The notes under the pieces: generated by a model
Seen by the model: only the letters and a program-made list of their open reading frames with translations
Databases searched by the model: none
What the model was told of the DNA's origin: nothing
Assembly: GCA_025839675.1 (NCBI GenBank)
Contig: CP104013.1
Coordinates: 1,050,001-1,082,000 of the forward strand
Direction of reading: 5' to 3'
DNA from: Candidatus Lokiarchaeum ossiferum
Lineage (GTDB): Archaea; Asgardarchaeota; Lokiarchaeia; Sigyniarchaeales; Promethearchaeaceae
Length of the DNA: 32,000 nt
Made by a program: the position numbers and the translations under genes
Part shown: piece by piece, positions 1 to 20,565 of the stretch
How the letters are laid out: each line of letters starts with the position of its first letter
Numbering within the stretch: position 1 is the first letter of the stretch

Positions 1-365
1 CATATTGATCCAACTACAACAATAGGGATGTGCAATGTTAATCGCTCCAATATAACCCAAAGATCCACTTTTTCGGGTGAAAATTCTCCTCCTCCGGGTA
101 AAACACTTTTATTTTGTTTCAATTTAATGAAAAATGGGATATCAAAAACAAAGATACAAATAACCATCATGGGATAGGTGCAAGCAACCACTAAATTGAA
201 AGCATCATTTTGGAAGCTAAAGATCATCGCAATAAAGAAATATTCTGCTAAAAATCTACTGGTAAAATGGCGCTCATATTTCAATTGCTTCTTTAATTTT
301 ATTTCATTTACCCAAATACGAAAAATAAGGCCTAAACATCCAAAAATTACCAAAAATATATTCAT
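1..365 (-). CDS. Partial small multi-pass membrane protein, function unknown; 3' end lies beyond the window edge
   Basis: Absent from the supplied ORF track because it has no stop inside the window. My hand translation of the minus strand from ATG 365..363 stays open to position 1: MNIFLVIFGCLGLIFRIWVNEIKLKKQLKYERHFTSRFLAEYFFIAMIFSFQNDAFNLVVACTYPMMVICIFVFDIPFFIKLKQNKSVLPGGGEFSPEKVDLWVILERLTLHIPIVVVGSI. It shows about 3 hydrophobic helices. It is on the same strand as the ABC ATPase and starts 75 nt downstream of that gene's stop. Confidence 0.4.
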   Translation of the reverse strand, partial: MNIFLVIFGCLGLIFRIWVNEIKLKKQLKYERHFTSRFLAEYFFIAMIFSFQNDAFNLVVACTYPMMVICIFVFDIPFFIKLKQNKSVLPGGGEFSPEKVDLWVILERLTLHIPIVVVGSI

Positions 366-440
366 TGAGAACAAGAATCACAATGTTTCACCAGATTAAA
401 ATACATCCAAAAAAAAAATAATATTAATTATATTTGTAGA

Positions 441-1532
441 TTATGAAACCTCTTGCCGAATATCGAATAAACTAACCCATTGATAATAAACTTGATAACA
501 TTCAGGACAGAAAATCACTGCCCTGGTCACCAATTGATTATTCTTCACCTTATAAGACCCATCTTCTTGATCGAAATTCTTGAGAATGTTCTCCGATTTG
601 CAGCGAGGACAAACATTAATATCTTGAAAATCAATGAAACGAAAATCAGGATTGAGAATTTTTTCCACCTTATCCTTTTCTTTCTGCATTTGTACAATTT
701 TGTCCATCTCTTGCATGCCTTCATCATCTGCATGAATAGATTCGGTACTTTCTGAATCAATTTTTCCCAGTTCCCGAATTATCTGCCCATCTTTGATGAT
801 TAAAGTCCGATCCGCAATTTTTCGGACTTCTGGGTTGTGAGTGACTATCACAATAGATTTATCCGGATTTTTTTGAATGAACTGTCTAAAAATGTTCATA
901 ATTTTTTCTGACGAGATAGAATCAATATTACCCGTAGGTTCATCGGCCAAAATAATAGTGGGATTATTTGCAAATGCCATTGCAATTGCCACTCGCTGTT
1001 TTTCCCCACCTGATAGCGTAAAAGGACGATGATGTGCACGATCTTCTAACCCGATTTCTTTAATGAGCTCATGAACTCGAGTTCGTTTATACTCATTGCT
1101 CTTCTTCGCAATAGTCATAGGCAATTCTACATTTCCTTCTGCGGTCAAACTGGGAATAAGGTTAAAAAATTGAAAGACTATACCAATTTCATTTTGCAAA
1201 ATTTGCTGCACTCCTTCATCCTTCATACGAGTAACATCAAACCCACGAATGAACACATGCCCTGCACTGGCTTGATCCATCCCAGATATGACGTTTAAAA
1301 GAGTTGTTTTTCCTGATCCTGAAGGACCCATAATCACAACAATCTCTCCAGCGTAAATATTCATATTGACTCCCTTAAGGGCGACTACTTCCAAATTACC
1401 TTGTTGGAAGATGCGAAAGACATTTTGACAACTAACGTTCACTTGCCTTTGTTTCAAGGGGACTTGTTTGTCTTGCGGTGTTACATTAGCGTCTACATCC
1501 GTTTTGGATGATTCATTTTCATTTTCGATCAT
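441..1532 (-). CDS. ABC transporter ATP-binding protein, MacB/LolD/FtsE-like, with a C-terminal four-Cys zinc-ribbon extension
   Basis: Walker A GPSGSGKTT, ABC signature LSGGEKQRVAIA, Walker B ILADEPTGNID and H-loop VTHN are present. ATG at 1532. The ABC core is about residues 37-262. It is followed by an acidic/Lys-rich linker and CPRC-x30-CPEC. The gene lies 24 nt downstream of the last FtsX-type permease gene. Confidence 0.95.
   Translation of the reverse strand: MIENENESSKTDVDANVTPQDKQVPLKQRQVNVSCQNVFRIFQQGNLEVVALKGVNMNIYAGEIVVIMGPSGSGKTTLLNVISGMDQASAGHVFIRGFDVTRMKDEGVQQILQNEIGIVFQFFNLIPSLTAEGNVELPMTIAKKSNEYKRTRVHELIKEIGLEDRAHHRPFTLSGGEKQRVAIAMAFANNPTIILADEPTGNIDSISSEKIMNIFRQFIQKNPDKSIVIVTHNPEVRKIADRTLIIKDGQIIRELGKIDSESTESIHADDEGMQEMDKIVQMQKEKDKVEKILNPDFRFIDFQDINVCPRCKSENILKNFDQEDGSYKVKNNQLVTRAVIFCPECYQVYYQWVSLFDIRQEVS
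498..611 (-). other. Zinc-ribbon-like module (CPRC...CPEC) at the C-terminus of the ABC ATPase
   Basis: Residues about 308-345 read CPRCKSENILKNFDQEDGSYKVKNNQLVTRAVIFCPEC. Two CxxC pairs 30 residues apart are the classic rubredoxin/zinc-ribbon knuckle spacing. The tgt cct cgc tgc codons are visible as the reverse complement of 600..611. Confidence 0.6.
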
Positions 1533-1556
1533 AGTTTGACATTCCTTTTTTTTTTA

Positions 1557-4500
1557 TTAAAATTGATGGAAATAATCCGTATAATTTTTTTTAGATTCAA
1601 AATAGTAGACAAGAAGATATATAATTATTGAGAAAACCGGTATCAATAATCCCACCAATAATATATCCATAAATTTGAAAAAAATGGGTGTTTTTATGTC
1701 TTGAAAGTTCAATTCAACAGCCCCTAACAATTTAGTAACAAAAATACCCTCAATTGCTCCGCTAAAAATTCCAGTGAATAAGGAAATCGTAAAAACCATC
1801 AGTGTCTCAGTTAATAAAAGCTTTAAAACACCTTTTTTTCCATATCCACGAGCTAAAAGGACACCTTGATTAAATTTATCCGCTTTCCTCAAAAATACTA
1901 ATAATATTGCAACACCAATAGCAATAATTAATCCAATAGCAATAAAATCCAAATATAGCACGGAATAAATCGTATTGGTTAAAGCACCTTCAAATATATT
2001 AACATCATCCAAATTATAAGAATTCCAATCATTATCATAGGTATATATATCAAAATTGTCAAAAGCCCCTATTTTTATTGTTGTATTCATTGTTCCTTCT
2101 ACGCAAAACTCGAAATTGGGTTCAACTACAAGATTGAAATCAAACATATGAATTATATTTTGACCATACATCATAGAAATATCTAATTCTAAAGCGTCAA
2201 TATCAACTAGCATGCATGTATAATCAGAATAATAACTTCGGTCATAATACGAAATCCCTGGAATCAGATCTACAACTGAGATAATTTTTGCAAGGTAGGT
2301 TTTAGTAAAAGTCCTTATAAAGTTTGGATCATAATATTTGATGTCTATATTAATAATTTCACCAAGTTCTACCGAATTAAGTTCAAGATATTTAGAATTT
2401 ACTGCTACCCCAAGATCAGAATCCTCAGGATTTCTATTATAATTAACTACTTCTTGAAACGGTGAAAATTTATTTTCGCTAATCAAATCTTTTCCATCTT
2501 CAGTAATACAAGTAGTGTATTTAGAGAGATTTAAGTAATATTCCATCTCATTATACCTCCCCGTGTTAAATCCCCGATATATGGTCAATACATCATCTAT
2601 GTATGTTTCATTATCTTCATTAGTCAATCCTTTGTACGTATTTTCAATATCAACTAAATCTTGACCAGATTTAACTAATCCTCGCGGACCTGGTCTATCA
2701 GCATCAAGACGATAATCAATTTCCGGAGAATATGTTATTTTAGCATCCGCCCCAGCTTCAATGTTGTACTCTATTCGTTGATACCTAACTATTGAATTTA
2801 ACATTATGTTTGAAAAGATGAAAAGTGACATAAATATTCCAATAAGGAACATAGTGGTGATGTATTGCTTTTTTCGAACCATATTTAAAGCCAAAATTTT
2901 ATTATCCTTTTTCATAATAATTCGGGAGATTTTGCGAGTAAATTTAGCAAAACGGCTAGGTTTCTCAAGTGCAAGGAACCGAATAATTGCAAAAACAAGG
3001 AGAAGTGGTGCAAAATAAAATAGAAACATTATACCACTTATCCTATATCGTAAACCATAGAATAACGATTGATAAATATCGCTATCAGAATTCAAACTAC
3101 CTAAGTAAAGAAAATAGAATATAACCGGAATTAAACTAAGTATTAGTAATAAATAAGAAATTGGCCATATTTTTTTTTCTCTTTGTGAAACACTATCCTT
3201 ATAGAGACTTCTTCGACGATTAAATAACTTTTTTCGTTTGGATTTTTTTAAATTTTGAACTCTTCCCTTCGATTCAACAAATAAATGAGGAGAACTCTCT
3301 TGAACATTCTTAGAATAAAAAGGTGTGTCTTCTAATGCAATTTTTTTTAATTTAGACTTTTTGAAAACAGATTTTTCGTCATATATTGCTTCCATTGAGT
3401 CAGAACCTAAGATTTCAAGAAGTTTATTGGTATGTAATTTACCTATATAGATTAGTGAAAGGATACTGGCAATTTGAGTAGTAAAAATTCCTACGATTAG
3501 TGAGGTAATAATAGGTCTCTCAGTTAGAACAAAAGATAGAGCTAATTCTATTCCAGATAATCCCAGAAACTGGGTCAACATATTACGGATAACATAAAAT
3601 ACACCTATACCTATAGTTGATCCTGCGAGTGATGCAATTGTTCCAATAGCAAAACCTTCAAAGAGAATTTGATTTCTGATCATTCCAGCAGGAGTTCCCT
3701 TGCTTCTTAATAATAAAAATTCTTCAATTCGACTTTTTTGTGCAATTTTTAAGGAAAAAGAACCAATTATTAAAGCAAATATCAAAATCGGAAAATTGAT
3801 TAATTGGAAAGCAATCCTAATCAAATTCAAGTCCATCCCAACATAACTCATTTGATATACCAAATAATTCATGAAGAACAGACCGTCAGGTAGATTGGAT
3901 TGAATAATTTCAGTACTAGTTTGCATTTGTGTAATTGTCGAAGAAATATGATTAAAATCTATTTTATTATGATTTGCAATAGCATTTAAAGATTGAACTC
4001 GAAACACATCGGAAGAATTCTCATTCCATTTTTGAGATAAAAATTCAGTCAGAATTGAATTTCCATAGAAATTAGATTGATTATAATAAGCAAAGACTGG
4101 TGCTTGGATATTATAAACAAAATCACGATCATCTAAATTCGGGGAAGATACATAGGTATTTGTTTTAGTGTCAAATTCGTATTCGGACCTGAAGTTCATA
4201 TTGGAAAATTGATAACTATATTTTAAACTCCCAAAAATACCCACTATTTTCACGTTTTCGATACAATATTTTGTCCATTTAGAGGGTACGACTTGGTAAT
4301 CTCCATCAATTCTTTGGAAAATGGAATCACTGGATGGTGAACAGATGGTCAAGTTGTACACATTGTTAAATGAAAAGTTCATGAATTTAGCAAACTGAAC
4401 ATCTACAAGAATTTCTTGTTCATTTTTTGGAAAAGTTCCTTTAATTAGTTTGAAGAATTTATTAAAATTTGGTGTTAAGTAGAAATTCTCTTCAGGTTGT

Positions 4501-4919
4501 AGTAGATTCATCTTTTGAAAATAATAATCGCCAAATATTGGTTTAGATGTGTTTACATTGGTATAATTCTTGTAAAAATATGAATTCTCAGAAGAGTAAA
4601 TAGACAGTTGAAAATACTCATCAATATACAATGATTTTTGATTTTCAGCAATATTTTGTATTATTGTTTTGTAATCATCAATTTCATCTGCATCCAAAAA
4701 TGAATTATTATCATGCTTTTGCATATCGTAATATGAAAATGAGTAATCATTTACCTCGGTAATATTTTCTTCTATAAATCTATTCGAAAATGAATCCGAA
4801 TAATAGGCTACACCTGCAACCATGCTTATAGCAATACTTAAACAGAATATAATTAAATATGCATTTTTTAAAGTAGATTTCGCCTGAGAGGCATAATATT
4901 TTAATCTGCCTTTGCCCAT
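1557..4919 (-). CDS. Giant fused double MacB/FtsX-type ABC permease, paralog 1 (10 predicted TM in a 4+2+4 arrangement, two large ectodomains)
   Basis: Half 1 has TM1 AYLIIFCLSIAISMVAGVAYY and a ~325-aa ectodomain with MacB-periplasmic-core-like strings (EILVDVQFAKFMNF, VKIVGIFGS). It continues with FtsX TM2-4 carrying the cytoplasmic coupling motif RIEEFLLLRSKGTP. A basic cytoplasmic linker and 2 extra TM helices follow. Half 2 starts ALNMVRKKQYITTMFLIGIF, has a ~270-aa ectodomain (GVAVNSKYLELNSVELGE, VVDLIPGI) and the FtsX motif NQGVLLARGYGKKG. A GGTGAT SD lies 3 nt upstream of ATG 4919. Confidence 0.9.
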   Translation of the reverse strand: MGKGRLKYYASQAKSTLKNAYLIIFCLSIAISMVAGVAYYSDSFSNRFIEENITEVNDYSFSYYDMQKHDNNSFLDADEIDDYKTIIQNIAENQKSLYIDEYFQLSIYSSENSYFYKNYTNVNTSKPIFGDYYFQKMNLLQPEENFYLTPNFNKFFKLIKGTFPKNEQEILVDVQFAKFMNFSFNNVYNLTICSPSSDSIFQRIDGDYQVVPSKWTKYCIENVKIVGIFGSLKYSYQFSNMNFRSEYEFDTKTNTYVSSPNLDDRDFVYNIQAPVFAYYNQSNFYGNSILTEFLSQKWNENSSDVFRVQSLNAIANHNKIDFNHISSTITQMQTSTEIIQSNLPDGLFFMNYLVYQMSYVGMDLNLIRIAFQLINFPILIFALIIGSFSLKIAQKSRIEEFLLLRSKGTPAGMIRNQILFEGFAIGTIASLAGSTIGIGVFYVIRNMLTQFLGLSGIELALSFVLTERPIITSLIVGIFTTQIASILSLIYIGKLHTNKLLEILGSDSMEAIYDEKSVFKKSKLKKIALEDTPFYSKNVQESSPHLFVESKGRVQNLKKSKRKKLFNRRRSLYKDSVSQREKKIWPISYLLLILSLIPVIFYFLYLGSLNSDSDIYQSLFYGLRYRISGIMFLFYFAPLLLVFAIIRFLALEKPSRFAKFTRKISRIIMKKDNKILALNMVRKKQYITTMFLIGIFMSLFIFSNIMLNSIVRYQRIEYNIEAGADAKITYSPEIDYRLDADRPGPRGLVKSGQDLVDIENTYKGLTNEDNETYIDDVLTIYRGFNTGRYNEMEYYLNLSKYTTCITEDGKDLISENKFSPFQEVVNYNRNPEDSDLGVAVNSKYLELNSVELGEIINIDIKYYDPNFIRTFTKTYLAKIISVVDLIPGISYYDRSYYSDYTCMLVDIDALELDISMMYGQNIIHMFDFNLVVEPNFEFCVEGTMNTTIKIGAFDNFDIYTYDNDWNSYNLDDVNIFEGALTNTIYSVLYLDFIAIGLIIAIGVAILLVFLRKADKFNQGVLLARGYGKKGVLKLLLTETLMVFTISLFTGIFSGAIEGIFVTKLLGAVELNFQDIKTPIFFKFMDILLVGLLIPVFSIIIYLLVYYFESKKNYTDYFHQF

Positions 4920-4922
4920 TAT

Positions 4923-4928
4923 ATCACC
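4923..4928 (-). promoter_or_regulatory. Shine-Dalgarno-like GGTGAT upstream of permease paralog 1
   Basis: The reverse complement of 4917..4930 reads atGGTGATataATG. GGTGAT matches the usual archaeal/bacterial anti-SD complement (GGAGGTGAT). Confidence 0.4.
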
Positions 4929-5034
4929 ATTTTTGATTGAAAGACAATTCTTCTAATTGTTTCACAATAATCACTTATTTTGAAGGGGTAATTATTTGAT
5001 ATTTTCATATTTTCGTTGTACATGTTTTCATTTG

Positions 5035-8000
5035 TTAGAATTGATGGAAATAATCCGTATAGTTTTTTTTGGTCTCAAAATAATAAACCAGAAGATATAT
5101 TGCTATGGATAGAATTGGAATTAGGAGTCCTAAAAGCAATAAATCCAGAGGATTAAAGAAAATGGGAAGTCTAATATCATTAAAATTGAAGGAAACGATC
5201 TTATAAAATTGTAAAAGAAGGACACTTTGAAGACCGCCGCTGAACAAACCAGATACAATTGAAATAGAAAAGACAATTGCAATTTCGGTCAATAATAATT
5301 TTAAAACGCCTTTTTTTCCATAACCTCGCGCTAAAAGAACTCCTTGATTATATTTATCCGCTTTTCGTAAAAATACCAATAAAATTGCAATACCAATCGC
5401 GATTATAATTCCAATGATGATTAAATCTAGATAAAAGATAGAATATACTCCAGAAACTTCAGAAAGGTTTGCGAGATCCAAATTTTTCAATGAAACAGAA
5501 TCCCAAGAGTTATCATAATATTTAAATTCTCCTATTGGAATATCATAATCTAATGCAACGTTCCATATTTGGTTTTCAATATAAGTTGAATTTAGAGCAA
5601 TTTCATAATTGAGATCAATCATTTGAAAAACTTGTGAGCCGTAAATAATATTCGAAGATAGATTCAAGCTATCAATATCAATTAAAATACACTGATCTGT
5701 GGAATAATAAAAGTAGTCCGGTCTATAGAGAATACCAGGAAATAAATCGCTTACAGCAACAATATTTACGGAAATCCTCTCGTGAACGAAATCTTCATCT
5801 TCAGGATTATAATAATCTAAATCCATTAACATAGATTCGCCGACATCAACAGAATTTTGTTCAAGAAAAGTAGGATTTACAATAATTCCAAGGTCAGAAT
5901 TATCTGGATTGTCATTATAATCTAAAGTTTGTTGAATTTTTTTAAAATGATCTTTGCTAATAGCATCTTTGTGATCTTCCGAAATAATATTGAGGTATTT
6001 AGAAAGATTGAGGAAATATCGTTGATCTTCCAAATACCCTCCATATGTATTTTTCCTTTGAACTGTTAAAACATCATTTATGAAGGATTCATTCTCAGAA
6101 TTATTCAAATTTTTGAGTGCATTTTCAAATGAAGTGAAATCATCCCCCGATTGAATTGGAGAGTCTTTTTCAAGGAATGTATCTGCAGAATCGTAATTGA
6201 ATAAAAGACTTCCAGGTAACTCCAAGTTGAGATCTGCTCCAGATGCAATATTTGTATTCACACGATCATATCTAATTATAGAATTCAAAGTTACATTTGA
6301 AAAAACAAGAACGGATATAAAGACGCCCACAAGAAACATCGTGGTGATATATTGCTTTTTTCTAACCATATTCAGTGCAACTAAGTTACTATCGCGTTTT
6401 AGGAATATCTTGGAGATCTTTTTTGAAAATTTCGCAAACCGACTCGGTTTTTCTAGGGCTACAAAACGAATTATGCCAAAAACGAGTAACAAAGGAGCTC
6501 CGATGAAAAGTATTATTAGCCCTGCAAATCCACCCATAAAAATCGAAGCGATTATCCAATAAAAATAATCATTGTTTGTCTCCGCTGCACTAATATATAA
6601 TAAAAATATAATAGCTGGAATCAAAGATAATAGAATGATTAAATATGAAAAGGGGCGTATTTTCTTTTCCTTGCTTTGCATCGTATCTTTGTATAATGAT
6701 CTTTTTCTACGAAATAATCCCTTCTTCCTTTTTTTCCCACTTGTTTCATTATTTAACGCAGGATCAGAAAGAAAATGAGGAGAACTTTCAACAACATTTC
6801 CAGAATAAAATGGAGTATCTTCCAAAGTTATATTGGCATCTTTATGTTTTTTAAAGATCGTTTTTTCATCATACAATGCTTCCATCGAATCTGCCCCTAA
6901 AATGGATAACAATTTATTTGTGTGCAATTTGCTAATAAAAACAAGTGAAATAATGCTCGCAACTTGGGTTAAAAGCGTCCCCACTATAAAAGAAGTTAAA
7001 ACCGATCTACCCGTTAAAATGAAAGGTAAAACAAGTCCAATTTCCCTTGATAAGAAGATTTTGGTTAAAATATTTCGTAAAATGAAGAAAACCCCAATAC
7101 CTAATATTGCCCCTAATAGAGTTGCAATGGCACCAATGAAGAAACCTTCAACTAAGATTTGGTTTCTAATCATGTTCTGTGGAGTACCTTTACTTCTCAA
7201 TAACAAAAACTCTTCTATTCGATTTTTTTGTTCAATTTTTAGAGCAAAAGCACCAATAAATAATGCGAATCCGATAATTGGGAGATTCAAAATCTGAAAA
7301 ACGGTTCGAGTAAACCCAATTTCATAACTAACACTCAATAATTGATTGTAGATATAATTCTCGTACCGCATGGGCAATTGATCAAACAAAATATAATTGC
7401 TGATTTGCATTTCATTTATGGTGGAAGATATATGCTGAAAATCAATCTTACTGTAATCTGCACTAGCACATAACATTTGATCTCGATACAGTCGAACGTG
7501 GAAATCATTCCACGCGGTTACGAGAAAATTTGCAAATTTCGAATTTCCATATACGTTGGATATATTATAGTAGGTGAAAAATGGAGATTGATCGCGGTCG
7601 TAAAACGAGTTATATTGAACCTCAAAGGATTCTGTCTTTGTATCAAGTAGATATCTTGAATCATAATAATCGCCCAAAATTTGATAATTATCATCCTTAA
7701 GACAACCATATATCCCTACAACTTTAATATCTGAAATATTATAGAAAATTAAATCAGAATTTAATTCGGGACCATCTTGGGTCCATTCAAATATTCCTGA
7801 ATTAGTTCCTTCTCCAACAAGATCTATTGTATAAGTTTTACCCAAGGTCAAATTCATTTCTTGTGCAAAAAGAACATCGATTAGTATTTCATTTTCACTG
7901 GTTGGATAAGTTCCATCCAATATTGTATAGAAATTTGAAAAACTGTCCGTTTGATAGAAGTTTTCTTGAACTTGATACAAATTAAAAGTGTGGCCATAAA

Positions 8001-8394: not shown

Positions 8395-8409
8395 TAGATT
8401 CACCCTGGT

Positions 8410-11400: not shown

Positions 11401-11766
11401 CATGGAAAAGGGCAGTGTGTTTTGTGAGATATTATCAAATAAATCTACACCTTGAGTTGTAAAATAACTAAAATATGGAATATGATCAGGAGAATATTCA
11501 CTTTCTTCATAGAGATCATGGATGCGTTGCAATGTTCCGGGAATATTGTAAACAAGTGGAAGTTCAAAAGTATTTGAATTAAGCACCACTTCATAATCAA
11601 TAACATTATTTAATTCAATGTCAAACTTGTAGCGTTGATATGAATCAGAATAGTAACCTAACCCGGAGATCAAACTCAGAGTGATTGAAAATGCGATAAT
11701 TATTAAAATTGAACTCTTAACATTCCGCGTCCCTTGCGAGAGATAATATGTAAATCGATTTCCCAT
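8410..11766 (-). CDS. Giant fused double MacB/FtsX-type ABC permease, paralog 3 (most divergent)
   Basis: It has the same 4+2+4 TM layout. Supporting strings are GEILIDSAYAQYLNMNL, ATVVGIF, RLEEFLLLKSKGVPPMMIGNQFIVE, GIEMVRRKQYKTVILIIGIF and NGVLLSRGFGKKGLLQLILSE, with the C-terminus KFFHKF. The track start at 11862 adds 32 residues (MNSVLLLDNKIYITNCVYFCYSKLENTQRTIL) with no counterpart in the paralogs. That extension also covers a TTTATATA box. The internal ATG at 11766 (MGNRFTYYLSQG) aligns with the paralog N-termini. Confidence 0.87.
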   Translation of the reverse strand: MGNRFTYYLSQGTRNVKSSILIIIAFSITLSLISGLGYYSDSYQRYKFDIELNNVIDYEVVLNSNTFELPLVYNIPGTLQRIHDLYEESEYSPDHIPYFSYFTTQGVDLFDNISQNTLPFSMGAFDSEFYHYDRFSEFFTILEGRSPENPGEILIDSAYAQYLNMNLSKTTNVYIRVDREKAIGVHAYDNLENHSIPNEQPDFIEDQIFGYNLNATVVGIFKPNRENYRFSVFEFSSNLLPTYINETTGVFSSAEIHSAPILTYYNYIKDSKSFYFRNLFYNIENEWDSNDLVKLIESRICVGGIISRGSFKLSNMNSLANKMRTEDIIIRNQLDQISNDYRFIDYTQSALRILYGKTDYVRTTLLLMNIPILLTAILLGSFARKTEVKSRLEEFLLLKSKGVPPMMIGNQFIVESLFIAFFSTALGLICGTGGFFLFRSLFIEIFDMKSASLVALRISMNSILDTFLFGILLSFLGSAIAIRFVIKMPVSELLSSIGSQEMDAIYDERSLFGKKSWEISTDEDPSKISDRKKKDKPKKPKKKWNLWNSTNLFNSQRDLQRQLVRETKSYPSPGLNAPSGEPDSGTSFYVDPLKEKEAKIINFSYAFILLSTIPLILFALIYLGSLPSASDQLAILSADLKKNLTVLTIFIIISPIFFALGVIRLFTKEKPSFFANLSKKISEWFLKERGFLVGIEMVRRKQYKTVILIIGIFTALFCFTNVYLNTNARYENIYANLEIGADVRTELSGVNLYMENLSDIVEFEDAFLNYNYSDGNPMVNNMVTCYNPDSTSRNYTPYLFDYENYMKIIDEDKKMLPSGQFRRDMQALIKYNKNPENNTPGVLVNQDFLTYNLKNEGDLFNFTFSFINSSTEEVRSTTILVKLLKTIEILPGIFHKFGVNQFARPMLACDIQFANSSPEIMYGDAIYQLFDITSELTSNSSLIEDHIANITQGFIRRFNHMEFYDQNWNSVSLKATIGTVGVYGVLYFDFIIVGILIAIGLAVLILALEKENKFFNGVLLSRGFGKKGLLQLILSELIVIFTIGILIGLFCGFSFSAIFVKVGNYLEVANQSTNFPIYANLGELFGILGLIMILSLIISYVAFLIESRQNISKFFHKF

Positions 11767-11823
11767 TAGTATTGTCCTTTGAGTGTTTTCTAATTTTGAA
11801 TAACAAAAATATACACAATTTGT

Positions 11824-11831
11824 TATATAAA
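11824..11831 (-). promoter_or_regulatory. Candidate archaeal TATA box (TTTATATA) for an internal promoter driving the permease/ATPase genes
   Basis: The minus strand reads gataacaagaTTTATATAacaaatt. The box ends 57 nt upstream of ATG 11766, which would place a TSS about 30 nt upstream of the start codon. This is a motif match only. Confidence 0.35.
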
Positions 11832-11867
11832 TCTTGTTATCAAGTAAAAGAACAGAATTCATATTTT

Positions 11868-11895
11868 TTAGAAAAAGAAAGAAATGAAAAAAGGC
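11868..11895 (-). terminator. Oligo-T-rich tract downstream of the 1190-aa gene (possible archaeal intrinsic terminator or attenuation point)
   Basis: The minus strand after the stop at 11908 reads ...cagccTTTTTTcaTTTcTTTcTTTTTct. Archaeal termination commonly uses oligo-T runs. This is weak evidence in an AT-rich genome. Confidence 0.25.
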
Positions 11896-11907
11896 TGGTG
11901 TCTAAAA

Positions 11908-14900
11908 TTATTTGTCTGATTTTGGTTTTAATTCTTTAATTTGAGGGCGATGCTTGAACGTAATATCTTTGGGCTTTTTTTTTGTAAGAGCATCGGGTTT
12001 CAAATGAGGTTTCTCAAGTCTGATCGTATTTTCTTCATTTTGAACCAAATCAGAAGAAGGTTTGGGTACATCCGAAGTTTTCGCTAAAACAGGTGATGTT
12101 TTGGGAGATTTACTTGTGTCTGGGACCACTTTAGTTATTTTAGGACTTTCATCCGGCGCTTTATAGGGGGCAATAGTATCCCCTGAAGGTAAAACTAAAG
12201 AGGTAACGTCCGATTTAGTTGTAAACCCAGATTTTCGATTTCCTTTTGAAATATTGGATTTTAACTGTCCTTGAACCTTCCCAGGTAAAATATCCTTGAC
12301 AAGATGAATGTAAGACCCCATAAATAAATCCTTCCGTGATTTTGTTGAAATATTGAACGATTTTCCGCGCTTCATTGATCGCTTAAGTTTTTTAATATCA
12401 CGAACAATCTTTGGATATTTGTAGTACTTTTGATAAGCAATAAAAGAAGAAGTTAACCCCGCTAATGCGATACCCATAGTATAAAAAGCCCAAGACGGAA
12501 TGGAATCAGTGGGTGGAGAAATAACATTCAAAGTAATTGTAAACTGATCAAACTTATAGTTTAACCCTTTGTACACAGTGATTATGATTTTATGAATTCC
12601 TTCGGGTAAATTATTTAAGAGTATAGTATAAACGTGGTTTTCATCTTCCAAAAGCGTTCCCGACCCTAAAGCAGACTGATATTCAACCAAACATCCAGAT
12701 ATCAGGCCCCCATTGTCAAGATCTTCAACAATTACACCTAAATCAAAATCTTCACCTGGCCGTAAAGAATAAGAACTATTATAATGTTGAGAAGTAATAT
12801 TCGTACTTATAGGTCTTATTTTTATCTGGAAATTCTTTGTAAATTGGGCATAATTAGCTTTTTGAGACAACACAGTTATAAAGTGAACCCCCAATCCCAT
12901 TTCGGTAGTATTTAATTGAAAATAATAATGGCTCCCCGAGGATCTATCTGAAAATTGACTTGAATTAAGTCCAACCAATGAAAAAGTAACCGCTGAAATA
13001 ATATTTCCAGATTCCGAATCATATAAAGCCCCAGAAATATTTAAATAATGGGTTATGGGAACTTCAACTTGGGTAAACATAGAATAATCAGAATTATCAA
13101 CAAAAACACCTAAGTTCACACTACGAGGTGTTATTTGTACTTCAATCAATTCGTTGTATTCTAGATGCTTAGGAGACGAAGCTACGAGGAAAATATAATA
13201 AATTCCTATGCTGAAATTAGTTGTATCAACAATGAATTCATGTTTTGTTGAAATCTGTCGATATGAAGAAGAGGCACCAGTCAATGTTACCGCTGCATCT
13301 AAAACGACATCAAATGTCACAGAATCATAAACTTGTGCAGTTAAATTCAAAGTTGAATTGTATTCGAGGTCAATATGAGGAGATAACGTTGAATTGATCC
13401 CATTCAAAAAAATATCAAAATATGAATCTCTCCCTAATACTTTGATCCGGATTTGTTGCGAAGACTGTTCATAATTGGATTTTCCCAGATATACTGTAAT
13501 TAAATGGGTTCCTAATCCTATTTTGGAAGTATTTAATAGATATTGGTATCTATTCCCAATCTCTGAAAATTCAAAGGTGGAATCATCAATATTATTACCT
13601 ACTAAAGAAATATTTGCATTGATTAAAGGTTCCTTACTTTCAAAATCATAATACCATGAAGTAATGTTCAATTGTGTATCATAGGGAACTTCTATAATTG
13701 GTGATTCAGTTAAATTGATATCATTGGAGAAGAGATCACAATAAGTGGGTCTTCCAATAATATTTATTTCTATTATCAGAGATGGTGTGTTATACCAAGT
13801 CCCTTCATTATCCGGAGTAATTTCTAACAAGTAGGACAACCCTGCAGAAACAATAGAAGTATTGATATCAAATTCATACAATCCATCGCCCAGAAAGAGA
13901 ACAGGACTATGATTATCGACCCAATTTAGAGAAAACGCACTATTATTGATTGAAACAACTGGAGAACTTTCAGAATAATTTAGAGTGATCGTTTTCGTGG
14001 TATTCCAAATGACATCATAATTATTTTTGCCATCAAGTGTGTTTAAAGTGGTTTCAATCGGTTCCCGTGACTCTATCACATTATACCATACAATTAAATT
14101 AATATTATCAAGGAAAATAGAGACATTATTTACAAGATAGAATTCATCGGCAATATACAATAGAATAGAAATGGATGTGTTTTCACTAAATTTATTTTTA
14201 TCCAAAAACAATGAAGAAACATCAAATCCATCCCCTTCATTAGTAGATTGAATTTCTGTAGTCATTGAAGATAAGAATATTTGTTCTGAAAGATAATTAT
14301 CATTTATGCCTATTTGAATTCGAGAATTTGGAGTAAGGTATCCTATTTGTTCGCTTATATTATAGTCAAAACTTAAGGTTGCATTAACAATTTCAATTTC
14401 TTTATCTAAATACTCACTATTATTTAATTTATTAGCACTTTGAACAAGATCTAAAGTAGAAAACTGATCTATTCTTTTTTCATAACTAAATTCTAAACTA
14501 AAGTTTTTAATTAAAAGAGAATCCCAAATATCTTGATCACTCCACCAATTATCTTCACACCAAATTCTTATTCCCAGCGTTACTGTGAAATGAAAATAAT
14601 CCTTGCTTAATACTGATGTAAGATAGATAATTAATGCCTCTTCAGATGTTGCATTAAAAACTAAATCAAGTAAATCATTGGAGCCAGTATCAGAGCCTAA
14701 TTCGACAGTTTGATAAAACGCAACTTCGTAAGTATCATTTTTATCAAGATCAGATAGTAAAACATAAAATCTAGCATAGTCACCCGTCCCAAATTGAGGG
14801 GAAATAGGATCGTGATCACTTCTATCACTCGTATCATCCCCTGGGCATTCAATTCCACCCATCCACCCATCAGCAGCATCAGAAACGGAGGCATTAATTG

Positions 14901-15480
14901 TAGTTCTTACAGAAGCACTAGTAATGCGATATTCAGACATATTAACATCAGTTGTTAAATTTTTTTCCCAGTGAACACTCGGTGATTGATTCGCATCTTC
15001 ATCCCATGCATGAGAAACCTCCAACATATCTTCTGAATTGAAAAGATGGGAATCAGGAAAAACTGGAAAATTTGGATTACTTTTTTCTAGCCAATCAATA
15101 TTTGAGAATGATGGATTTATATCCGAGAAAGTATTGGAATTTCCAATTATTGTGGAATTCGAAACTTCGGTGGAAATAGCACCATCTAAATCAAATAGAT
15201 CTCCGGTTTTTTCATAATTCCATGGACTATCGCCAAAATCTGTAGTAAAAGATGGATCATTAATTAATTGTTTCGAATAAAGCGTGCTATTTTTTAGTAT
15301 AACAGAGGAGTTTGGATTATTAAATTTATTATCATTGTTATTTCCAGTATTTTTATATTCTTTAATTGTATTCTGTGTAACCACTTGACCAATAATGCAA
15401 ATCATCAATATTGCCAAGGTGATTTTTTTTTTGGGAGAATTCATTTTTATTTTTCCACCTCTAAAAGCTTGTTTTTCCAT
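11908..15480 (-). CDS. Giant type-I membrane surface protein: signal peptide, ~430-aa N-terminal domain, four to five Ig-like ~100-aa repeats, C-terminal TM anchor and a 174-aa K/P/S-rich cytoplasmic tail
   Basis: The N-terminus ...MNSPKKKITLAILMICIIGQVV is signal-peptide-like. I counted at least ~30 N-x-S/T sequons by eye in the ectodomain. Repeats span residues ~475-988 (recurring ...Y.F.LNT...G.G.H.ITV...NY....F.I.I...). The TM is WAFYTMGIALAGLTSSFIAY (res ~996-1016). ATG 15480 has GAGGT 7 nt upstream but overlaps the upstream gene by 34 nt. The alternative ATG 15444 lies 2 nt after the upstream stop and has GAGGTGG upstream. Confidence 0.85.
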   Translation of the reverse strand: MEKQAFRGGKIKMNSPKKKITLAILMICIIGQVVTQNTIKEYKNTGNNNDNKFNNPNSSVILKNSTLYSKQLINDPSFTTDFGDSPWNYEKTGDLFDLDGAISTEVSNSTIIGNSNTFSDINPSFSNIDWLEKSNPNFPVFPDSHLFNSEDMLEVSHAWDEDANQSPSVHWEKNLTTDVNMSEYRITSASVRTTINASVSDAADGWMGGIECPGDDTSDRSDHDPISPQFGTGDYARFYVLLSDLDKNDTYEVAFYQTVELGSDTGSNDLLDLVFNATSEEALIIYLTSVLSKDYFHFTVTLGIRIWCEDNWWSDQDIWDSLLIKNFSLEFSYEKRIDQFSTLDLVQSANKLNNSEYLDKEIEIVNATLSFDYNISEQIGYLTPNSRIQIGINDNYLSEQIFLSSMTTEIQSTNEGDGFDVSSLFLDKNKFSENTSISILLYIADEFYLVNNVSIFLDNINLIVWYNVIESREPIETTLNTLDGKNNYDVIWNTTKTITLNYSESSPVVSINNSAFSLNWVDNHSPVLFLGDGLYEFDINTSIVSAGLSYLLEITPDNEGTWYNTPSLIIEINIIGRPTYCDLFSNDINLTESPIIEVPYDTQLNITSWYYDFESKEPLINANISLVGNNIDDSTFEFSEIGNRYQYLLNTSKIGLGTHLITVYLGKSNYEQSSQQIRIKVLGRDSYFDIFLNGINSTLSPHIDLEYNSTLNLTAQVYDSVTFDVVLDAAVTLTGASSSYRQISTKHEFIVDTTNFSIGIYYIFLVASSPKHLEYNELIEVQITPRSVNLGVFVDNSDYSMFTQVEVPITHYLNISGALYDSESGNIISAVTFSLVGLNSSQFSDRSSGSHYYFQLNTTEMGLGVHFITVLSQKANYAQFTKNFQIKIRPISTNITSQHYNSSYSLRPGEDFDLGVIVEDLDNGGLISGCLVEYQSALGSGTLLEDENHVYTILLNNLPEGIHKIIITVYKGLNYKFDQFTITLNVISPPTDSIPSWAFYTMGIALAGLTSSFIAYQKYYKYPKIVRDIKKLKRSMKRGKSFNISTKSRKDLFMGSYIHLVKDILPGKVQGQLKSNISKGNRKSGFTTKSDVTSLVLPSGDTIAPYKAPDESPKITKVVPDTSKSPKTSPVLAKTSDVPKPSSDLVQNEENTIRLEKPHLKPDALTKKKPKDITFKHRPQIKELKPKSDK
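12517..14058 (-). repeat. Protein-level tandem repeats (~100 aa, Ig/beta-sandwich-like) within the surface protein; diverged at DNA level
   Basis: Units cover approximately residues 475-576, 577-684, 685-786, 787-890 and 891-988. Recurring features are an N-glycosylation sequon near each unit start, a central aromatic-rich strand (YQYLLNTSKIGLGTHLITVY / HYYFQLNTTEMGLGVHFITVL / HVYTILLNNLPEGIHKIIITVY) and a terminal 'I.I.V/I' strand. Confidence 0.6.
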
Positions 15481-18131
15481 ATTTTCAACCTCTTGGTTAG
15501 TATTTTCTTCTTAAAATCATCCAAAAAAGCATTACGTCTTAAGTCATCCCGCCAAGTGCAAATATCAGATACAGATTTTGAAGAAATGCCACTTTTTTGA
15601 GCAATACCATATAATTGTTCCAATCCAAGTATTGTATCATCAATTTTTGTTTCATCGAGAGATTTTAAGATGTTATTAAAAACTATTTTAACCTTTTTCT
15701 CATCAACTTTCTCAGTTTTTTTAGGTTGTTCCTTATCGTTAGATACATTGAGCTTTTCTCCTGTTTTTCCTCCAATATTATGATTGTCATTTAACTTATT
15801 TTTTTGGTTTTCTGGGTTAATTTTAGAAGCGGGTGAAATATTATCTCCAATCGACATTGAAGGAGTTGTTTGTTTTTCCAATTCTTGCTTTTTTTTATGT
15901 TGTTGGAATTTTAACGCTGGAGAAAAGGGATCCACAATTGGCATTGAAGGTTTTGCTGGTTTTTCCAATTCTTCCTTTTTTTTTTGTTGTTGATATTTTA
16001 ACGCCGGAGAAAAAGGATCCACAACTGGTATCGAAGAAGGGGCTTTTTTAGGAACTTTCTGCTCTGTTTTTACAATTTCTGAAAATTTCTTATAGGGAAT
16101 AAAGGATTTTTCATTAGATGAAGAATTTTTAGTAATGTTCTGAGGGGGCTTATCTTGACTTATATTTTTAGAACTGGTTGTAGATAGAGATTGATTTTTA
16201 TCTTCAGGTGTATCCTCAAAAGTTTCTCTCATGGATTTGATAGCTGCAGAGCTTAAAGTTCTTTTATCCGCATCGGATGTAAAAATATGGCTTTCTGGCG
16301 GTTCAATACTCAAAACATTATTAACAATTGGAGGTGCTGAAGCACCGGATGAAACGGGCGCTTCCGCCATTATGGGATGATTTGACAAAACCTTCGATTT
16401 TATCAATGGATTAGGTTTTTTACCCACAAATTTTGCAATTTCCGTCACTGGAAATCCATCTGGAAGGTTTTTGCTTGAATTACGCCAAGCATCTTCCAAA
16501 ATAGGAACAAAAATTTTGATATGCTCTGGTAATATACTCCCAATACCTGCAACCTCCAAAGGTGATTGAGTTTGTTTTTCATCCGAATTGACAATACCTA
16601 AAATAATCTCCTCATAATCACGATTAATAGCCCACAAGTTCTTCAATTTACGATGTCGATAGTCAATATTATGACGGGAATCAAAATAAGCAAGTTTTTC
16701 CTTTTGATTTTTGTCTTGTTTGTTAATATTGCAACAGATTCGCACATTTATATGATTTCGGATTTTTTTAAAGGGTTCAATGTCAATATCGGAAAGCGAC
16801 GGGGCTAGAATTAATAATCGCATTTTTGCACGTAATATTCCGTCATCTAATTGGGCTATCATACCTTCAGGAGTGCGAACAAACCAAACATCCTTCATTG
16901 TGAAATTAATCGATCCTTTGGACACTTCCCAAAATTCTTTGATAGAACTAATATTCATATCAAGCTGATCAACAATTTTCCCTAGAATATCATCAAGCGT
17001 AATAACCACTTTTTCAGAAAAAGTGTTTTTAAGCATTCCAAAGGAGCCCATAACTGAATCGGAGATATTAAGTATTTTATCTTGAGTATCAGAAAGAGTA
17101 TCATCAAATTGAGTTAATACCGTAGAAAAGGAATTTTGAAGACCACTACTTACTTTACCCGCATTTTCAGAAATGAGCCCAATTTCTTTAGTCAATTGAT
17201 CGAGCAGATATTTGAATTTGGATTCAAAAGTTTTCTGAAAATCGTCTCGAATTTTCTCCATTTGAGTATCAATACTTTTTTGAACAATATCTTCGACTGT
17301 TTTCACAATCACACCGAGTTGAAGCTTTTGCAAATTTTTCGATATTTTTTGCTTAAGCAATTCAAATTGATTAAATAATGAGATATAATGCTCATCTACA
17401 AGCCCAATACTCTGATCACGTAAAGAATTTATCCCAGTCACAATCTTCTGTTGATTTTGCAAGTGAACTAATGATTCATCAAGTAAATCACGCTGATCAG
17501 AAATATCTTTAGATAAGTTCATTTTAATATCAGAGAGATATTTGACAAAATCGAGTAAATTTTGGACACCTTGCGCTTTGTCTTCAAAATTTAAGAAGGA
17601 AGTATGTAAATCTGTTGGAGTAGAGATTTGAATCCCGCGGATCATCTGAGTAAATTTTTCAAGTTGATCTATTAAAGCAGCATAGGGAGGTAATGCTTGA
17701 TAATAAATTGTGGCACCTTGGATTTCTTTAAACAATCCTTTTTGTAAGAAGCGTCCCGCAATATTTTTAGCACGCTCCATGGGAATACTTCCAAGAATTG
17801 CGATCTCTCCCAAAGATATGGGTCCCTTGCCTGATGTGTTAAGGAAAATTTCAATTTCTTCTTCAGAAAGATCGATTGAGCGTAATACTTTGCGCGATAT
17901 ATCCTCATTTTTTTTGTTATTTTGATCTATTGATTCCACAATTTCAAAGGATTCCACTTTCAATTTATTATTGATCTGAACTATTAAATTATGGGATGGT
18001 GCTCCGTGAATTGAATTCAAAGTGTACGGAAAACTATCTTTCTGGACAGAATCAAGATTCAAATCAAATTCAATATCCTGTAAGCATTTTTTGCATCGAA
18101 ATATGATTTTTTTGGAATTATTTTTTGCCAT
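15447..18131 (-). CDS. Multidomain cytoplasmic protein: CxxC/HxxxxH knuckle, TrmB-like winged helix, ~250-aa helical region, TrmB-C/PLD-like domain, ~240-aa disordered region with 29-aa repeats, C-terminal helical domain
   Basis: IDLSEEEIEIFLNTSGKGPISLGEIAILGSIPMERAKNIAGRFLQKGLFKEIQGATIYYQALPP matches the TrmB N-terminal wHTH pattern. No TM segments are present. The track start at 18140 is GTG and I prefer ATG 18131 (MAKNNSKK...). The upstream gene's stop is at 18142..18144, so the two genes abut. Confidence 0.8.
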   Translation of the reverse strand: MAKNNSKKIIFRCKKCLQDIEFDLNLDSVQKDSFPYTLNSIHGAPSHNLIVQINNKLKVESFEIVESIDQNNKKNEDISRKVLRSIDLSEEEIEIFLNTSGKGPISLGEIAILGSIPMERAKNIAGRFLQKGLFKEIQGATIYYQALPPYAALIDQLEKFTQMIRGIQISTPTDLHTSFLNFEDKAQGVQNLLDFVKYLSDIKMNLSKDISDQRDLLDESLVHLQNQQKIVTGINSLRDQSIGLVDEHYISLFNQFELLKQKISKNLQKLQLGVIVKTVEDIVQKSIDTQMEKIRDDFQKTFESKFKYLLDQLTKEIGLISENAGKVSSGLQNSFSTVLTQFDDTLSDTQDKILNISDSVMGSFGMLKNTFSEKVVITLDDILGKIVDQLDMNISSIKEFWEVSKGSINFTMKDVWFVRTPEGMIAQLDDGILRAKMRLLILAPSLSDIDIEPFKKIRNHINVRICCNINKQDKNQKEKLAYFDSRHNIDYRHRKLKNLWAINRDYEEIILGIVNSDEKQTQSPLEVAGIGSILPEHIKIFVPILEDAWRNSSKNLPDGFPVTEIAKFVGKKPNPLIKSKVLSNHPIMAEAPVSSGASAPPIVNNVLSIEPPESHIFTSDADKRTLSSAAIKSMRETFEDTPEDKNQSLSTTSSKNISQDKPPQNITKNSSSNEKSFIPYKKFSEIVKTEQKVPKKAPSSIPVVDPFSPALKYQQQKKKEELEKPAKPSMPIVDPFSPALKFQQHKKKQELEKQTTPSMSIGDNISPASKINPENQKNKLNDNHNIGGKTGEKLNVSNDKEQPKKTEKVDEKKVKIVFNNILKSLDETKIDDTILGLEQLYGIAQKSGISSKSVSDICTWRDDLRRNAFLDDFKKKILTKRLKIWKNKLLEVEK
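15777..16040 (-). repeat. In-frame tandem repeat, 87-nt period (2 good copies plus 1 degenerate), encoding PS.P(I/V)VDPFSPALK(Y/F)QQ.KKK.ELEK
   Basis: It is directly visible on the plus strand: tttttccaattcttgc...ggatccacaattgg (from 15873) recurs as tttttccaattcttcc...ggatccacaactgg (from 15960). The offset is 87 nt, or 29 aa. The third copy (PSMSIGDNISPASKINPENQ) is decayed. Confidence 0.85.
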
Positions 18132-18141
18132 TTCACTCACT

Positions 18142-19410
18142 TTAAAATTCTATCACTTCATTGTATGTAGAAACTAATAAATCCAGAGCAATATTTGCAA
18201 CTTCTTTGGTGATGGGAGAATATAAAGAAAACTCATCGATAGAACCCATCTTCATGATTGTTCGATCGGAAATCTTATTCAAGATTTCTTCCGGAAAAAT
18301 TGTAATCGGGGTAATCTGAGCTAACAAGCAAATCCACTCCCTGTTTGCTTTATCAGTTAAAATCTTAATAATCTTGGCTTCTTTCAGTTTTGCTAACACT
18401 TTGTCCATCTCAGAAAATTCGGACAAAATATGGGGTATTTTTTTCACAGGAATTGCACGAGTCTGCAATAATGCGAGGAAATCATATATATCGGGATCTA
18501 AAAGAAAATCTGCTAATAATTCACTTTCTTCGTTTATTTTTTCAGTAGGATTGTAATTTTGGTAAAATTTATATAGCTCTTGAAGGTATTGCGTCCCCAC
18601 ATACGAGTTATGTTTCATATCTTCAACTAATTGAATTGGAGGAGAGCGAACTAAAGCAATATCTTTGACTAAAAATAAGAATTCACCTTCCCCTCTCAAT
18701 TTACCCGTCTTTTTGTTAAATTCACCCCGTGCCCAATCCCTTCGGATTAAATTGAGCTCCGTGAATGGTTTTAACAATAAATCGGTATTTATATTTCGCT
18801 TAATTTCAAGCATTTTTTGATTAAAAATCACTCGAGAAATTGGACCTTCGCGAAGAATTCTCAAGCACTCCATTCGCTCGAAACTTGAATAAATCAAAGC
18901 GGCTTTTTGTTCTTTGGATAAGTTAGATAGACGTTCGATTTGAAAAATCGCAAATTTCATCTCATTAAGAAGTTTATTTTCGATCCCTTCTACCACCCGA
19001 AAGTCATTTAAATTAGCAGTTATGAGAGTCTCAAAAACGGGCATCATTCGTTCGGTCATATGATAGAAAATTGGTTCAAACAATTCCACTTCACTTTCAC
19101 GTTCGAATAAATTGATTATCAAATATTGAGATTCATCGGTTTCTTGGTGATAATAGGATAAACATTTATATGGTGCTTCTTTCAATCGACCTACAATATA
19201 ATTTTTAATCTGACGACCCTTTTTAGTCATTATTCCTGTAGTATGATTATAGAAAAGGCGAAATTTATCATTATTTGATAGAAGATCTTCGAGATTATCA
19301 TCTTGATGAAAATTCGATAGTTCAGATACAATTTCTTCAAACTTTGGTTCAATTTCTCCCTCGTCATCTTGATTAATCTTAAATTGATAAACTATAATTC
19401 CAACAACCAT
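18142..19410 (-). CDS. Hypothetical cytoplasmic protein, first gene of the cluster; possible longin/roadblock-like N-terminal domain plus winged-helix-like C-terminal region
   Basis: The 422-aa ORF starts with ATG and has no TM segments. N-terminal pattern MVVGIIVYQF...FRLFYNH...CLSYYHQETDESQYLIINLFERESEVELFEPIFYHMTERM. This resembles the b-b-a-b-b-b-a layout and the 'YL.I.....E...AF.FL..I...F' signature of longin-type domains. That comparison is by eye only. Confidence 0.75.
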   Translation of the reverse strand: MVVGIIVYQFKINQDDEGEIEPKFEEIVSELSNFHQDDNLEDLLSNNDKFRLFYNHTTGIMTKKGRQIKNYIVGRLKEAPYKCLSYYHQETDESQYLIINLFERESEVELFEPIFYHMTERMMPVFETLITANLNDFRVVEGIENKLLNEMKFAIFQIERLSNLSKEQKAALIYSSFERMECLRILREGPISRVIFNQKMLEIKRNINTDLLLKPFTELNLIRRDWARGEFNKKTGKLRGEGEFLFLVKDIALVRSPPIQLVEDMKHNSYVGTQYLQELYKFYQNYNPTEKINEESELLADFLLDPDIYDFLALLQTRAIPVKKIPHILSEFSEMDKVLAKLKEAKIIKILTDKANREWICLLAQITPITIFPEEILNKISDRTIMKMGSIDEFSLYSPITKEVANIALDLLVSTYNEVIEF

Positions 19411-20563: not shown

Positions 20564-20565
20564 AA

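Follow-up and report, generated by a model that had tools for sequence, protein, structure and literature searches.

ABC (ATP-binding cassette) systems of type VII such as MacB, LolCDE/LolF, YtrF and FtsEX are built from dimerising subunits with four transmembrane (TM) helices each, the FtsX fold unit (PF02687), and from ATPases of a common nucleotide-binding domain (NBD) subfamily. BceB has one large ectodomain, between TM7 and TM8, and works with the intramembrane-sensing kinase BceS. Another member, YbbP of E. coli, was solved in 2025 and has ten TM helices, with periplasmic domains between TM1 and TM2 and between TM7 and TM8; TM5-6 form a linker that joins two duplicated FtsX units, and the YbbAP complex has an ATPase:permease stoichiometry of 2:1 (PMC12646458). 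Here we analyse a cluster of eight consecutive minus-strand genes from the Asgard archaeon Candidatus Lokiarchaeum ossiferum, in which relatives of these transporters are found next to a large surface protein. The cluster is located in a stretch of 32,000 nucleotides (contig CP104013.1, positions 1,050,001 to 1,082,000 of the forward strand), called the window below, and all coordinates refer to the window unless stated otherwise.

In the order of transcription, the cluster opens with three genes, here called the triad or module A, which encode a 422-aa soluble protein (18142-19410), an 894-aa protein (15447-18131) and a 1190-aa type-I surface protein (11908-15480). These are followed by an ABC block, module B, of ~11.4 kb (431-11816) that encodes permease A (8410-11766), permease B2 (5035-8403), permease B1 (1557-4919) and an ABC ATPase (441-1532). 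The last gene, gene 8, encodes a small membrane protein and belongs to neither module; it starts at 365 and is cut by the window edge (1-365). Longin-domain proteins and the archaeal transcription and chromatin proteins TrmB and TrmBL2 are the described proteins to which the first two triad products compare. L. ossiferum itself has no S-layer, and cryo-electron tomography has revealed unidentified "complex surface proteins" on its cells (PMC9834061).

A test of linkage between the triad and the ABC genes

A preliminary description of this DNA had read all eight genes as one type VII ABC surface system. Its gene layout was borne out by a scan for open reading frames (ORFs), which recovered seven complete minus-strand ORFs from 19410 down to 441 at the positions it had given, and an eighth truncated by the window edge. 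Its account of tiny or zero spacers holds in part. The four junctions that it had quoted are indeed tight, and all of these lie inside the modules, but the other three spacers measure 141 nt (surface gene to permease A, 11767-11907), 115 nt (permease B2 to permease B1, 5035 to 4919) and 75 nt (ATPase to gene 8, 441 to 365, with a T10 run). The widest of the three, at 141 nt, separates the modules.

We assembled 86 non-redundant loci with a homolog of the 422-aa protein, taking flanks of up to 10 kb per side (many contigs are shorter; 678 kb in total), and mapped all seven window proteins on them by tblastn. No permease or ABC ATPase match was found at any of these 86 triad loci. Likewise, none of five independent ABC loci (103 kb) carried a triad gene. 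The ABC loci, L008 included, have the ATPase with either one or two permeases: one permease and the ATPase are present in Promethearchaeum syntrophicum MK-D1 (L009) and at L094, and two permeases and the ATPase at L010/L011 and L093. In MK-D1, the two loci have different neighbours; the closed genome supplied the triad locus, and a separate assembly of the same organism the ABC locus. Such a neighbourhood survey had been named in the preliminary description, with a lack of conserved linkage as the outcome that would speak against permeases acting on the co-encoded glycoprotein as one system. Now that it has been run, the families of the 422-, 894- and 1190-aa proteins show no conserved linkage to permease or ATPase genes. 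The two soluble proteins had also been tied to the ABC system; their linkage to the surface protein is conserved across Asgard archaea, but a linkage to ABC genes was not found.

The contig of a congener (L005) is 79% identical to the window at the nucleotide level and encodes a 422-aa protein that is 90% identical in amino acids. It is colinear with the window over two stretches, 20844 to ~11817 (the His_Phos_1 gene to the end of the surface gene) and ~430 to 1. The blastn blocks cover window positions 20844-15938, 15768-15442, 14045-12817, 13447-11853 and 412-1 against L005 502-10437, and the junctions were refined by local alignment. The stretch missing from L005, ~431-11816, holds exactly the three permease genes and that of the ATPase. 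In L005, the surface gene is directly followed by a gene for a 191-aa protein with 89% amino acid identity to the product of gene 8, and no gene 8 homolog was found downstream of the ABC operon in L010. Compared with the congener, the ABC block is a lineage-specific insertion of 11.4 kb, located between the surface gene and gene 8. Because the congener and all other triad loci are without ABC genes, parsimony favours an insertion in the L. ossiferum lineage. Its right edge (~11816) falls inside the 141-nt spacer, and no target-site duplications or terminal repeats of at least 9 nt were found at its edges. A two-permease ABC operon (L010) was recovered from the same sample as L005, at similar coverage and on another contig.

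The spacer between the modules has oligo-T runs right after the stop codon of the surface gene and a TATA-like box, TTTATATA, ~60 nt ahead of the ATG at 11766. Read as a putative terminator and promoter, these elements would be compatible with a separate ABC transcription unit. They also bear on the idea of a single eight-gene system that works on the co-encoded glycoprotein. That idea can draw on eight co-directional genes with four very tight junctions and on the precedent that type VII ABC systems act on extracytoplasmic partners, as in FtsEX-EnvC and YbbAP-TesA (PMC12646458). We nevertheless regard it as very improbable, since linkage is missing from every triad and ABC locus surveyed, the orthologous locus of the congener has no ABC block, and the junction between the modules is long and carries T-runs and a TATA-like box, the tight junctions being confined to the modules. 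A lineage-specific co-option, in which a block inserted by chance is now co-transcribed or co-regulated with the surface gene in L. ossiferum alone, would fit the common strand, the landing of the insertion in a short spacer downstream of the surface gene and the fact that no strong terminator hairpin was identified. This too seems unlikely, as oligo-T runs are the usual archaeal termination signal and a TATA-like box precedes the permease start; shared regulation, moreover, would by itself imply no shared mechanism.

Two points weigh against a full separation of the modules. Given the same strand and the 141-nt spacer, transcription of the surface gene may read through into the ABC genes, and the assignment of L005 and L010 to one genome is presumptive, based on the shared sample and similar coverage. 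Taken together, a reading of the cluster as one eight-gene ABC surface system is unsupported. We consider it likely that the cluster consists of two independent units lying side by side, a conclusion that we hold jointly with the receptor relay proposed for the triad in the next section.

Composition and conservation of the triad

The triad recurs in the 86 Asgard loci. Wherever a source name is given, homologs of the 422-aa protein (n = 180) and of the 894-aa protein (n = 187) all come from Asgard archaea, namely Promethearchaeota and Hermod-, Hod-, Odin- and Thorarchaeota. In 64 of the 69 loci with enough sequence, the start of an 894-aa homolog lies no more than 400 nt downstream of the 422-aa gene. 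Surface paralogs, in one to four copies, are divergent and no more than 1.5 kb upstream of the 422-aa gene in 30 of 44 loci; at triad loci these proteins consist of the N-domain, a TM helix and a tail and are typically 480-590 aa long. In the Lokiarchaeum/Promethearchaeum lineage, the surface genes are co-directional with the pair and downstream of it (L003, L005, L007, L012 and the window). The congener L005 also shares the His_Phos_1/422 arrangement of the window. Three further features of these loci were observed. In the main clade, a gene for a metallo-beta-lactamase-fold protein (~335 aa) and a 399-aa FAD-binding gene follow the 422/894 pair in 26 of the 34 loci with enough downstream sequence (e.g. 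L001 13566-15846 and L002 13781-16036), and this synteny is absent from the window. On contig Ga0315547_1000037 (L038/L047), the 422-aa gene occurs twice, at a distance of 11.8 kb. At L068, one of the five exceptions to the pairing, a 422 homolog is followed by 10 kb of downstream sequence with no 894-aa homolog.

The 1190-aa surface protein has a signal peptide, a conserved N-domain of ~400 aa (~70-470), five tandem repeats of ~100 aa (471-987), a TM helix (~997-1027) and a tail. The signal peptide and the single TM helix near the C-terminus were assigned by visual inspection of the translation, and the C-terminal TM segment scores only 1.33 in a hydropathy scan, under the threshold used. Only visual inspection and MAFFT revealed the repeats; a blastp self-comparison gave no off-diagonal match. 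The protein is sequon-rich, as had been noted earlier, with 35 N-X-S/T sequons. The alignment of the surface N-domain family gave no match in Pfam, NCBIfam or PDB sequence searches. At the cytoplasmic end, a juxtamembrane motif, FIAYQKYYKYPKIVRDIKKLKRS... (~1012-1062), is followed by a K/P/S-rich tail. This motif, YL[IV]AYQ..LKYP.PVRKVRKYR.TL.R...P..V.I..R...F...Y..EL (window 12292-12447), is kept in 53 surface paralogs (L001-L092) that are otherwise 30-40% identical, fast-evolving and 433 to 1740 aa long. The motif is a candidate docking site.

Searches with the profile of the 422-aa family found, besides orthologs, five large Promethearchaeota proteins (P0318, P0358, P0359, P0390 and P0371). 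In each of these, a sequon-rich ectodomain precedes a single TM helix, after which come a comparable basic stretch next to the membrane and, at the cytoplasmic C-terminus, a 422-like module. The ectodomains of P0359 and P0390 contain LamG, DUF2341 and immunoglobulin-like domains, and the 422-aa protein of the window matches P0318 with an E-value of 1e-21 over 320 residues (BLASTP). The five proteins appear to be natural receptor-adaptor fusions, with a module made up of a probable longin-like part and a predicted double winged helix. By Rosetta-stone logic, such fusions indicate a role of the free 422-aa protein on the cytoplasmic side of separately encoded receptors and speak for its physical coupling to their conserved tail.

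The 894-aa protein is 100% identical to NEF87_000855. It is given here from the ATG at 18131, the start in the NCBI annotation; translation from a GTG at 18140 would give 897 aa. The AlphaFold2 model shows an N-terminal Cys2His2 beta-domain, a TrmB-type winged helix-turn-helix (wHTH) domain (70-146), a helical hairpin of ~250 aa (150-405), a phospholipase D (PLD)-like alpha/beta domain (415-550), a disordered region (563-807) and a C-terminal 4-helix domain (811-893). Residues C13, C16, H42 and H47 are invariant or nearly so in the family alignment. Foldseek matched the model to TrmBL2 (5bpd, E 6.4e-8), to the TrmB sugar-binding domain (2f5t, 4.4e-5) and to the PLD folds of NucT, Zucchini and FAM83 (1e-5). 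The match of the protein to PF01978 is weak (E 0.021), and precomputed TrmB matches are recorded for homologs. The model and its structural matches thus agree with the TrmB-like nature proposed earlier for this protein. Like TrmB and TrmBL2, it has an N-terminal wHTH domain, a helix and a PLD-like alpha/beta domain. In contrast to these regulators, which are ~260-340 aa long, it carries the additional Cys2His2 beta-domain at its N-terminus, its connecting helix has grown into the ~250-residue hairpin, a disordered region of ~245 residues and a helical domain are added at the C-terminus, and its gene is strictly paired with a longin-like gene. No canonical HxK...D...GSxN motif was visible in its sequence. 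The disordered region includes a tandem duplicate, P[IV]VDPFSPALK[YF]QQ.KKK.ELEK, at residues 705 and 734 (window 15930-16040, residues ~693-765), and the duplicated DPFSPALK[YF]QQ motif may be a short linear interaction motif.

The 422-aa protein has no Pfam or NCBIfam match. Its AlphaFold2 model (pLDDT 88.2, pTM 0.82) predicts a longin-like domain (~1-131), a helical linker and two winged helices (~166-256 and ~292-371). In the model, DSSP assigns the N-terminal domain the topology beta-beta-alpha-beta-beta-beta-alpha (E2-14, E20-31, H46-57, E70-75, E82-89, E95-102, H108-131). Foldseek searches of the PDB with this domain returned FLCN/FNIP, TRAPPC2, Lst4, the Lokiarchaeota longin protein 8yqg and C9orf72/SMCR8 (probability 0.97-0.99, E 4e-3 to 0.1), and the C-terminal half matched ArsR-type wHTH domains (probability 0.97-1.0 and E of at least 4e-3 for the whole match set). 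The predicted N-terminal longin topology is common to FLCN/FNIP, NPRL2/3, TRAPPC2, Lst4 and the Lokiarchaeota Roadblock-Longin protein 8yqg. The 422-aa protein differs from these in that two winged helices follow the longin-like domain, rather than a DENN/NPRL2-type C-terminal domain or a GTPase, and in that its genomic partners are TrmB-like and type-I surface proteins rather than small GTPases. Two other candidate identities were considered. An ESCRT-II subunit was not indicated by any Pfam match or among the top 50 Foldseek matches, and a GATOR1/NPRL assignment was not supported, the match to a GATOR1 chain being poor (probability 0.35). In two paralogs from Promethearchaeota, P0298 and P0310, this double winged-helix module comes after helix-hairpin-helix repeats at the N-terminus, which hints at a nucleic-acid-related role for some paralogs.

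The longin-fold matches, to FLCN/FNIP, TRAPPC2, Lst4 and SMCR8, raise the question of whether the triad is a trafficking or sorting device, in which the longin protein would read the receptor tail as a sorting signal or recruit a small GTPase and the coiled-coil protein would act as a tether. Many longin/Roadblock proteins and small GTPases are encoded in Asgard genomes, which is in keeping with this idea. However, no small GTPase gene is conserved across the 86 neighbourhoods, the partner of the longin-like protein has a TrmB-type DNA-binding fold, and endomembrane trafficking of this kind has so far not been demonstrated in Asgard archaea. A trafficking role is therefore improbable in our view.

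Upstream of the 422-aa gene, by 65-77 nt, an ACTTAAG element stands beside a TATA-like box at 38 of 77 loci, against ~0.2 expected by chance. Its context is TTACTTAAGA[CA]AT[AT]ATTATATA, and the loci include L001, L026, L028, L030-L034, L036 and L037; seven loci also carry a perfect palindrome, ACTTAAGT, at -33. The promoter is thus tightly conserved at the sequence level within the main clade; the window, L005 and L012 lack the element. When the regions upstream of the 422 homologs were searched for a common palindromic operator, the outcome was, besides this clade-specific element, mostly AT-rich noise. The fixed element is one reason to ask whether the triad is a local transcription circuit only, with the TrmB-like and longin-like winged-helix proteins regulating the neighbouring surface genes without any contact to the tail. 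The wHTH domains in both the 422-aa and the 894-aa proteins point the same way, as do the divergent regulator/target arrangement that is common among the loci and the hint of nucleic-acid binding in the paralogs with helix-hairpin-helix repeats. A purely local circuit would, however, leave both the strongly conserved cytoplasmic tail and the fusions of receptor, TM helix and 422-like module unexplained, and the surface-gene promoters do not carry ACTTAAG. We find such a circuit rather doubtful as a full account of the triad.

We favour instead a receptor-adaptor-TrmB-like relay because of the conserved tail, the receptor/422-like fusions and the transcription-factor fold of the partner of the 422-aa protein. 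On the evidence of synteny, the conserved tail and the fusions, the receptor tail would dock the 422-aa adaptor; the adaptor and the TrmB-like protein would then link what happens at the cell surface to a response in the cytoplasm, most plausibly a transcriptional one. In general terms, the triad may be a widespread Asgard outside-in device in which a diversifying family of type-I surface receptors or adhesins docks, by its conserved tail, a longin-like double-winged-helix adaptor, fused to the receptor in some lineages, which would act with the giant TrmB-like protein to relay contacts to the genome or to cytoplasmic machinery, and we offer this only tentatively. Several points count against the relay. 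Every step of the relay past the conserved neighbours and fusions is an inference from sequence, with both binding and DNA recognition putative. The longin assignment depends on a model with Foldseek E-values of only 4e-3 to 0.1. Five of the 69 loci lack an adjacent 894-aa homolog, and the absence of ACTTAAG from the surface-gene promoters leaves no sign of a common regulon. We found no description of the triad in the searchable literature, including the L. ossiferum description, the asCOG preprint, the structural study of Asgard longins and GTPases and the MK-D1 glycoproteome. The triad thus consists of known folds in a combination for which no description was found there.

Architecture of the ABC unit

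The permeases and the ATPase had been predicted to form a MacB/FtsX-fold (type VII) ABC system, and matches in Pfam, in NCBIfam and of family profiles in the PDB agree with this. The ATPase (363 aa) matches PF00005, as anticipated, with an E-value of 1.5e-36. Its best NCBIfam matches are the MacB NBD (3e-63), LolD (1.2e-62) and FtsE (1.5e-57), and it scores below all NCBIfam equivalog cutoffs by a wide margin, so that the similarity is at the subfamily level only. By sequence, it belongs to the MacB/LolD/FtsE NBD subfamily. The C-terminal zinc ribbon that had been noticed on the ATPase is also present, as CPxC...CxxC, with the four cysteines invariant among five orthologs of 66-77% identity.

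Each permease contains two stretches that match PF02687 at 49.7-55.7 bits, against a gathering cutoff of 25.5, in line with the two FtsX domains per permease expected from the preliminary description. The longest ORF of permease A (8410-11862, 1150 aa) overextends the gene; since every homolog aligns only from residue 27-33, the start was set at Met33 (11766), which gives 1118 aa. Permease B2 (NEF87_000852, 1122 aa) matches P0122, and permease B1 (NEF87_000851, 1120 aa) is 100% identical to P0121. Permeases B1 and B2 are 50% identical to each other, and permease A is 31% identical to both and orthologous to the first permease of L010 (41% identity). Hydropathy predicts ten TM helices for all three paralogs. 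The predicted order in permease B1 is TM1, ectodomain 1 (39-366), TM2-4, a cytoplasmic linker (493-589), TM5-6, TM7, ectodomain 2 (708-991) and TM8-10. The predicted ectodomains are thus ~330 aa (TM1-2) and ~285 aa (TM7-8) and the linker ~95 aa. The sequons of the permeases are concentrated in both predicted ectodomains. In the closest paralog pair, these ectodomains are 39-41% identical, and the TM and cytoplasmic parts 59-69%. Only 19 proteins make up the permease family, and those with a source name are all from Promethearchaeota; a profile scan of genome contigs with the permease alignment added one fragmentary locus only (L008).

The TM parts alone gave the family-profile matches in the PDB: YtrF (4.6e-5), LolF (6.7e-5), LolE (8e-3) and YbbP (0.05). 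A MacB_PCD domain (PF12704), which had also been predicted, was not detected by Pfam in the isolated ectodomains, even at E<=10. Neither this search nor a comparison of ectodomains 1 and 2 by hhalign, which was not significant, confirmed a Porter/Sabre fold of the ectodomains. The two halves of the permease family were likewise not significantly similar by hhalign, which leaves the two Pfam FtsX matches as the basis for an internal duplication. Sequence comparison supports type VII membership for the TM unit, the NBD and the predicted topology.

Among described systems, YbbAP(-TesA) (PDB 9GE6-8; PMC12646458) shares with the archaeal unit a single ten-TM permease polypeptide, ectodomains between TM1-2 and TM7-8, a TM5-6 linker and a separate ATPase of the MacB/LolD type. 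The sequence similarity of the archaeal permeases to YbbP is marginal (E 0.05). Compared to YbbP (804 aa), they are longer (~1120 aa), with larger ectodomains that have no MacB_PCD sequence match, and they have a conserved cytoplasmic linker of ~95 aa. The archaeal ATPase has a C-terminal zinc ribbon and is accompanied by three paralogous permeases, and the archaeal cell has a single membrane. No TesA-like hydrolase gene was found in or beside the operon in the window, L009, L010, L093 or L094, which is a further difference from YbbAP-TesA. MacA/HlyD-like, LolA-like and EnvC/PcsB-like partner genes are likewise not encoded with the ABC operon. The FtsX four-TM fold unit and the NBD subfamily are common to the archaeal unit and to MacB, LolCDE/LolF, YtrF and FtsEX, but the archaeal permeases carry both FtsX units fused. 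By analogy with YbbA2:YbbP1, each archaeal permease would be an internally duplicated pseudo-dimer to which two molecules of the common ATPase bind. On this view, the paralogs would act as three alternative transporters that share one ATPase, with the faster-diverging ectodomains setting specificity.

BceAB also combines a ten-TM double-FtsX permease with a separate ATPase (compared in PMC12646458), but the permeases of the window have two predicted ectodomains. A BceS-type kinase is not conserved beside the ABC operons (window, L009, L010, L093 and L094), and the PAS kinase and response regulator of the window (20566-24684) lie past module A, not beside the ABC operon. Membership of the BceAB type was rejected on the two predicted ectodomains and the lack of a two-component system conserved beside the operon. 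With the ABC unit, a known transporter architecture gains an archaeal relative, unusual in its size, its linker, its zinc-ribbon ATPase and its three permeases per ATPase.

Surroundings of the cluster and significance of the triad

Upstream of the triad, an intergenic region (19411-19849), presumed to be a promoter region, is shared with a divergent His_Phos_1 histidine-phosphatase gene. This gene opens a region beyond module A (19850-25152) that continues with genes for regulators: a response regulator (20566-21693), a HisKA_2 histidine kinase with five PAS domains (21709-24684) and an ArsR-type regulator (24730-25152). L005 likewise has the histidine-phosphatase gene upstream of the triad, and in MK-D1 (L012) this gene is ~5 kb off. 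An Rfam search of the window gave no match, and PADLOC defence-system models gave generic ABC ATPase similarity only.

In view of these results, an "archaeal ABC surface machine" is not worth pursuing as one system at this locus, and the triad is its interesting part. The triad module is present in both L. ossiferum and P. syntrophicum, and both are cultured, which makes the relay hypothesis directly testable. If the relay is real, the triad surface family could help to identify the "complex surface proteins" on L. ossiferum cells, and a longin-domain protein, a eukaryotic signature protein, would gain a membrane-receptor context in the closest archaeal relatives of eukaryotes.

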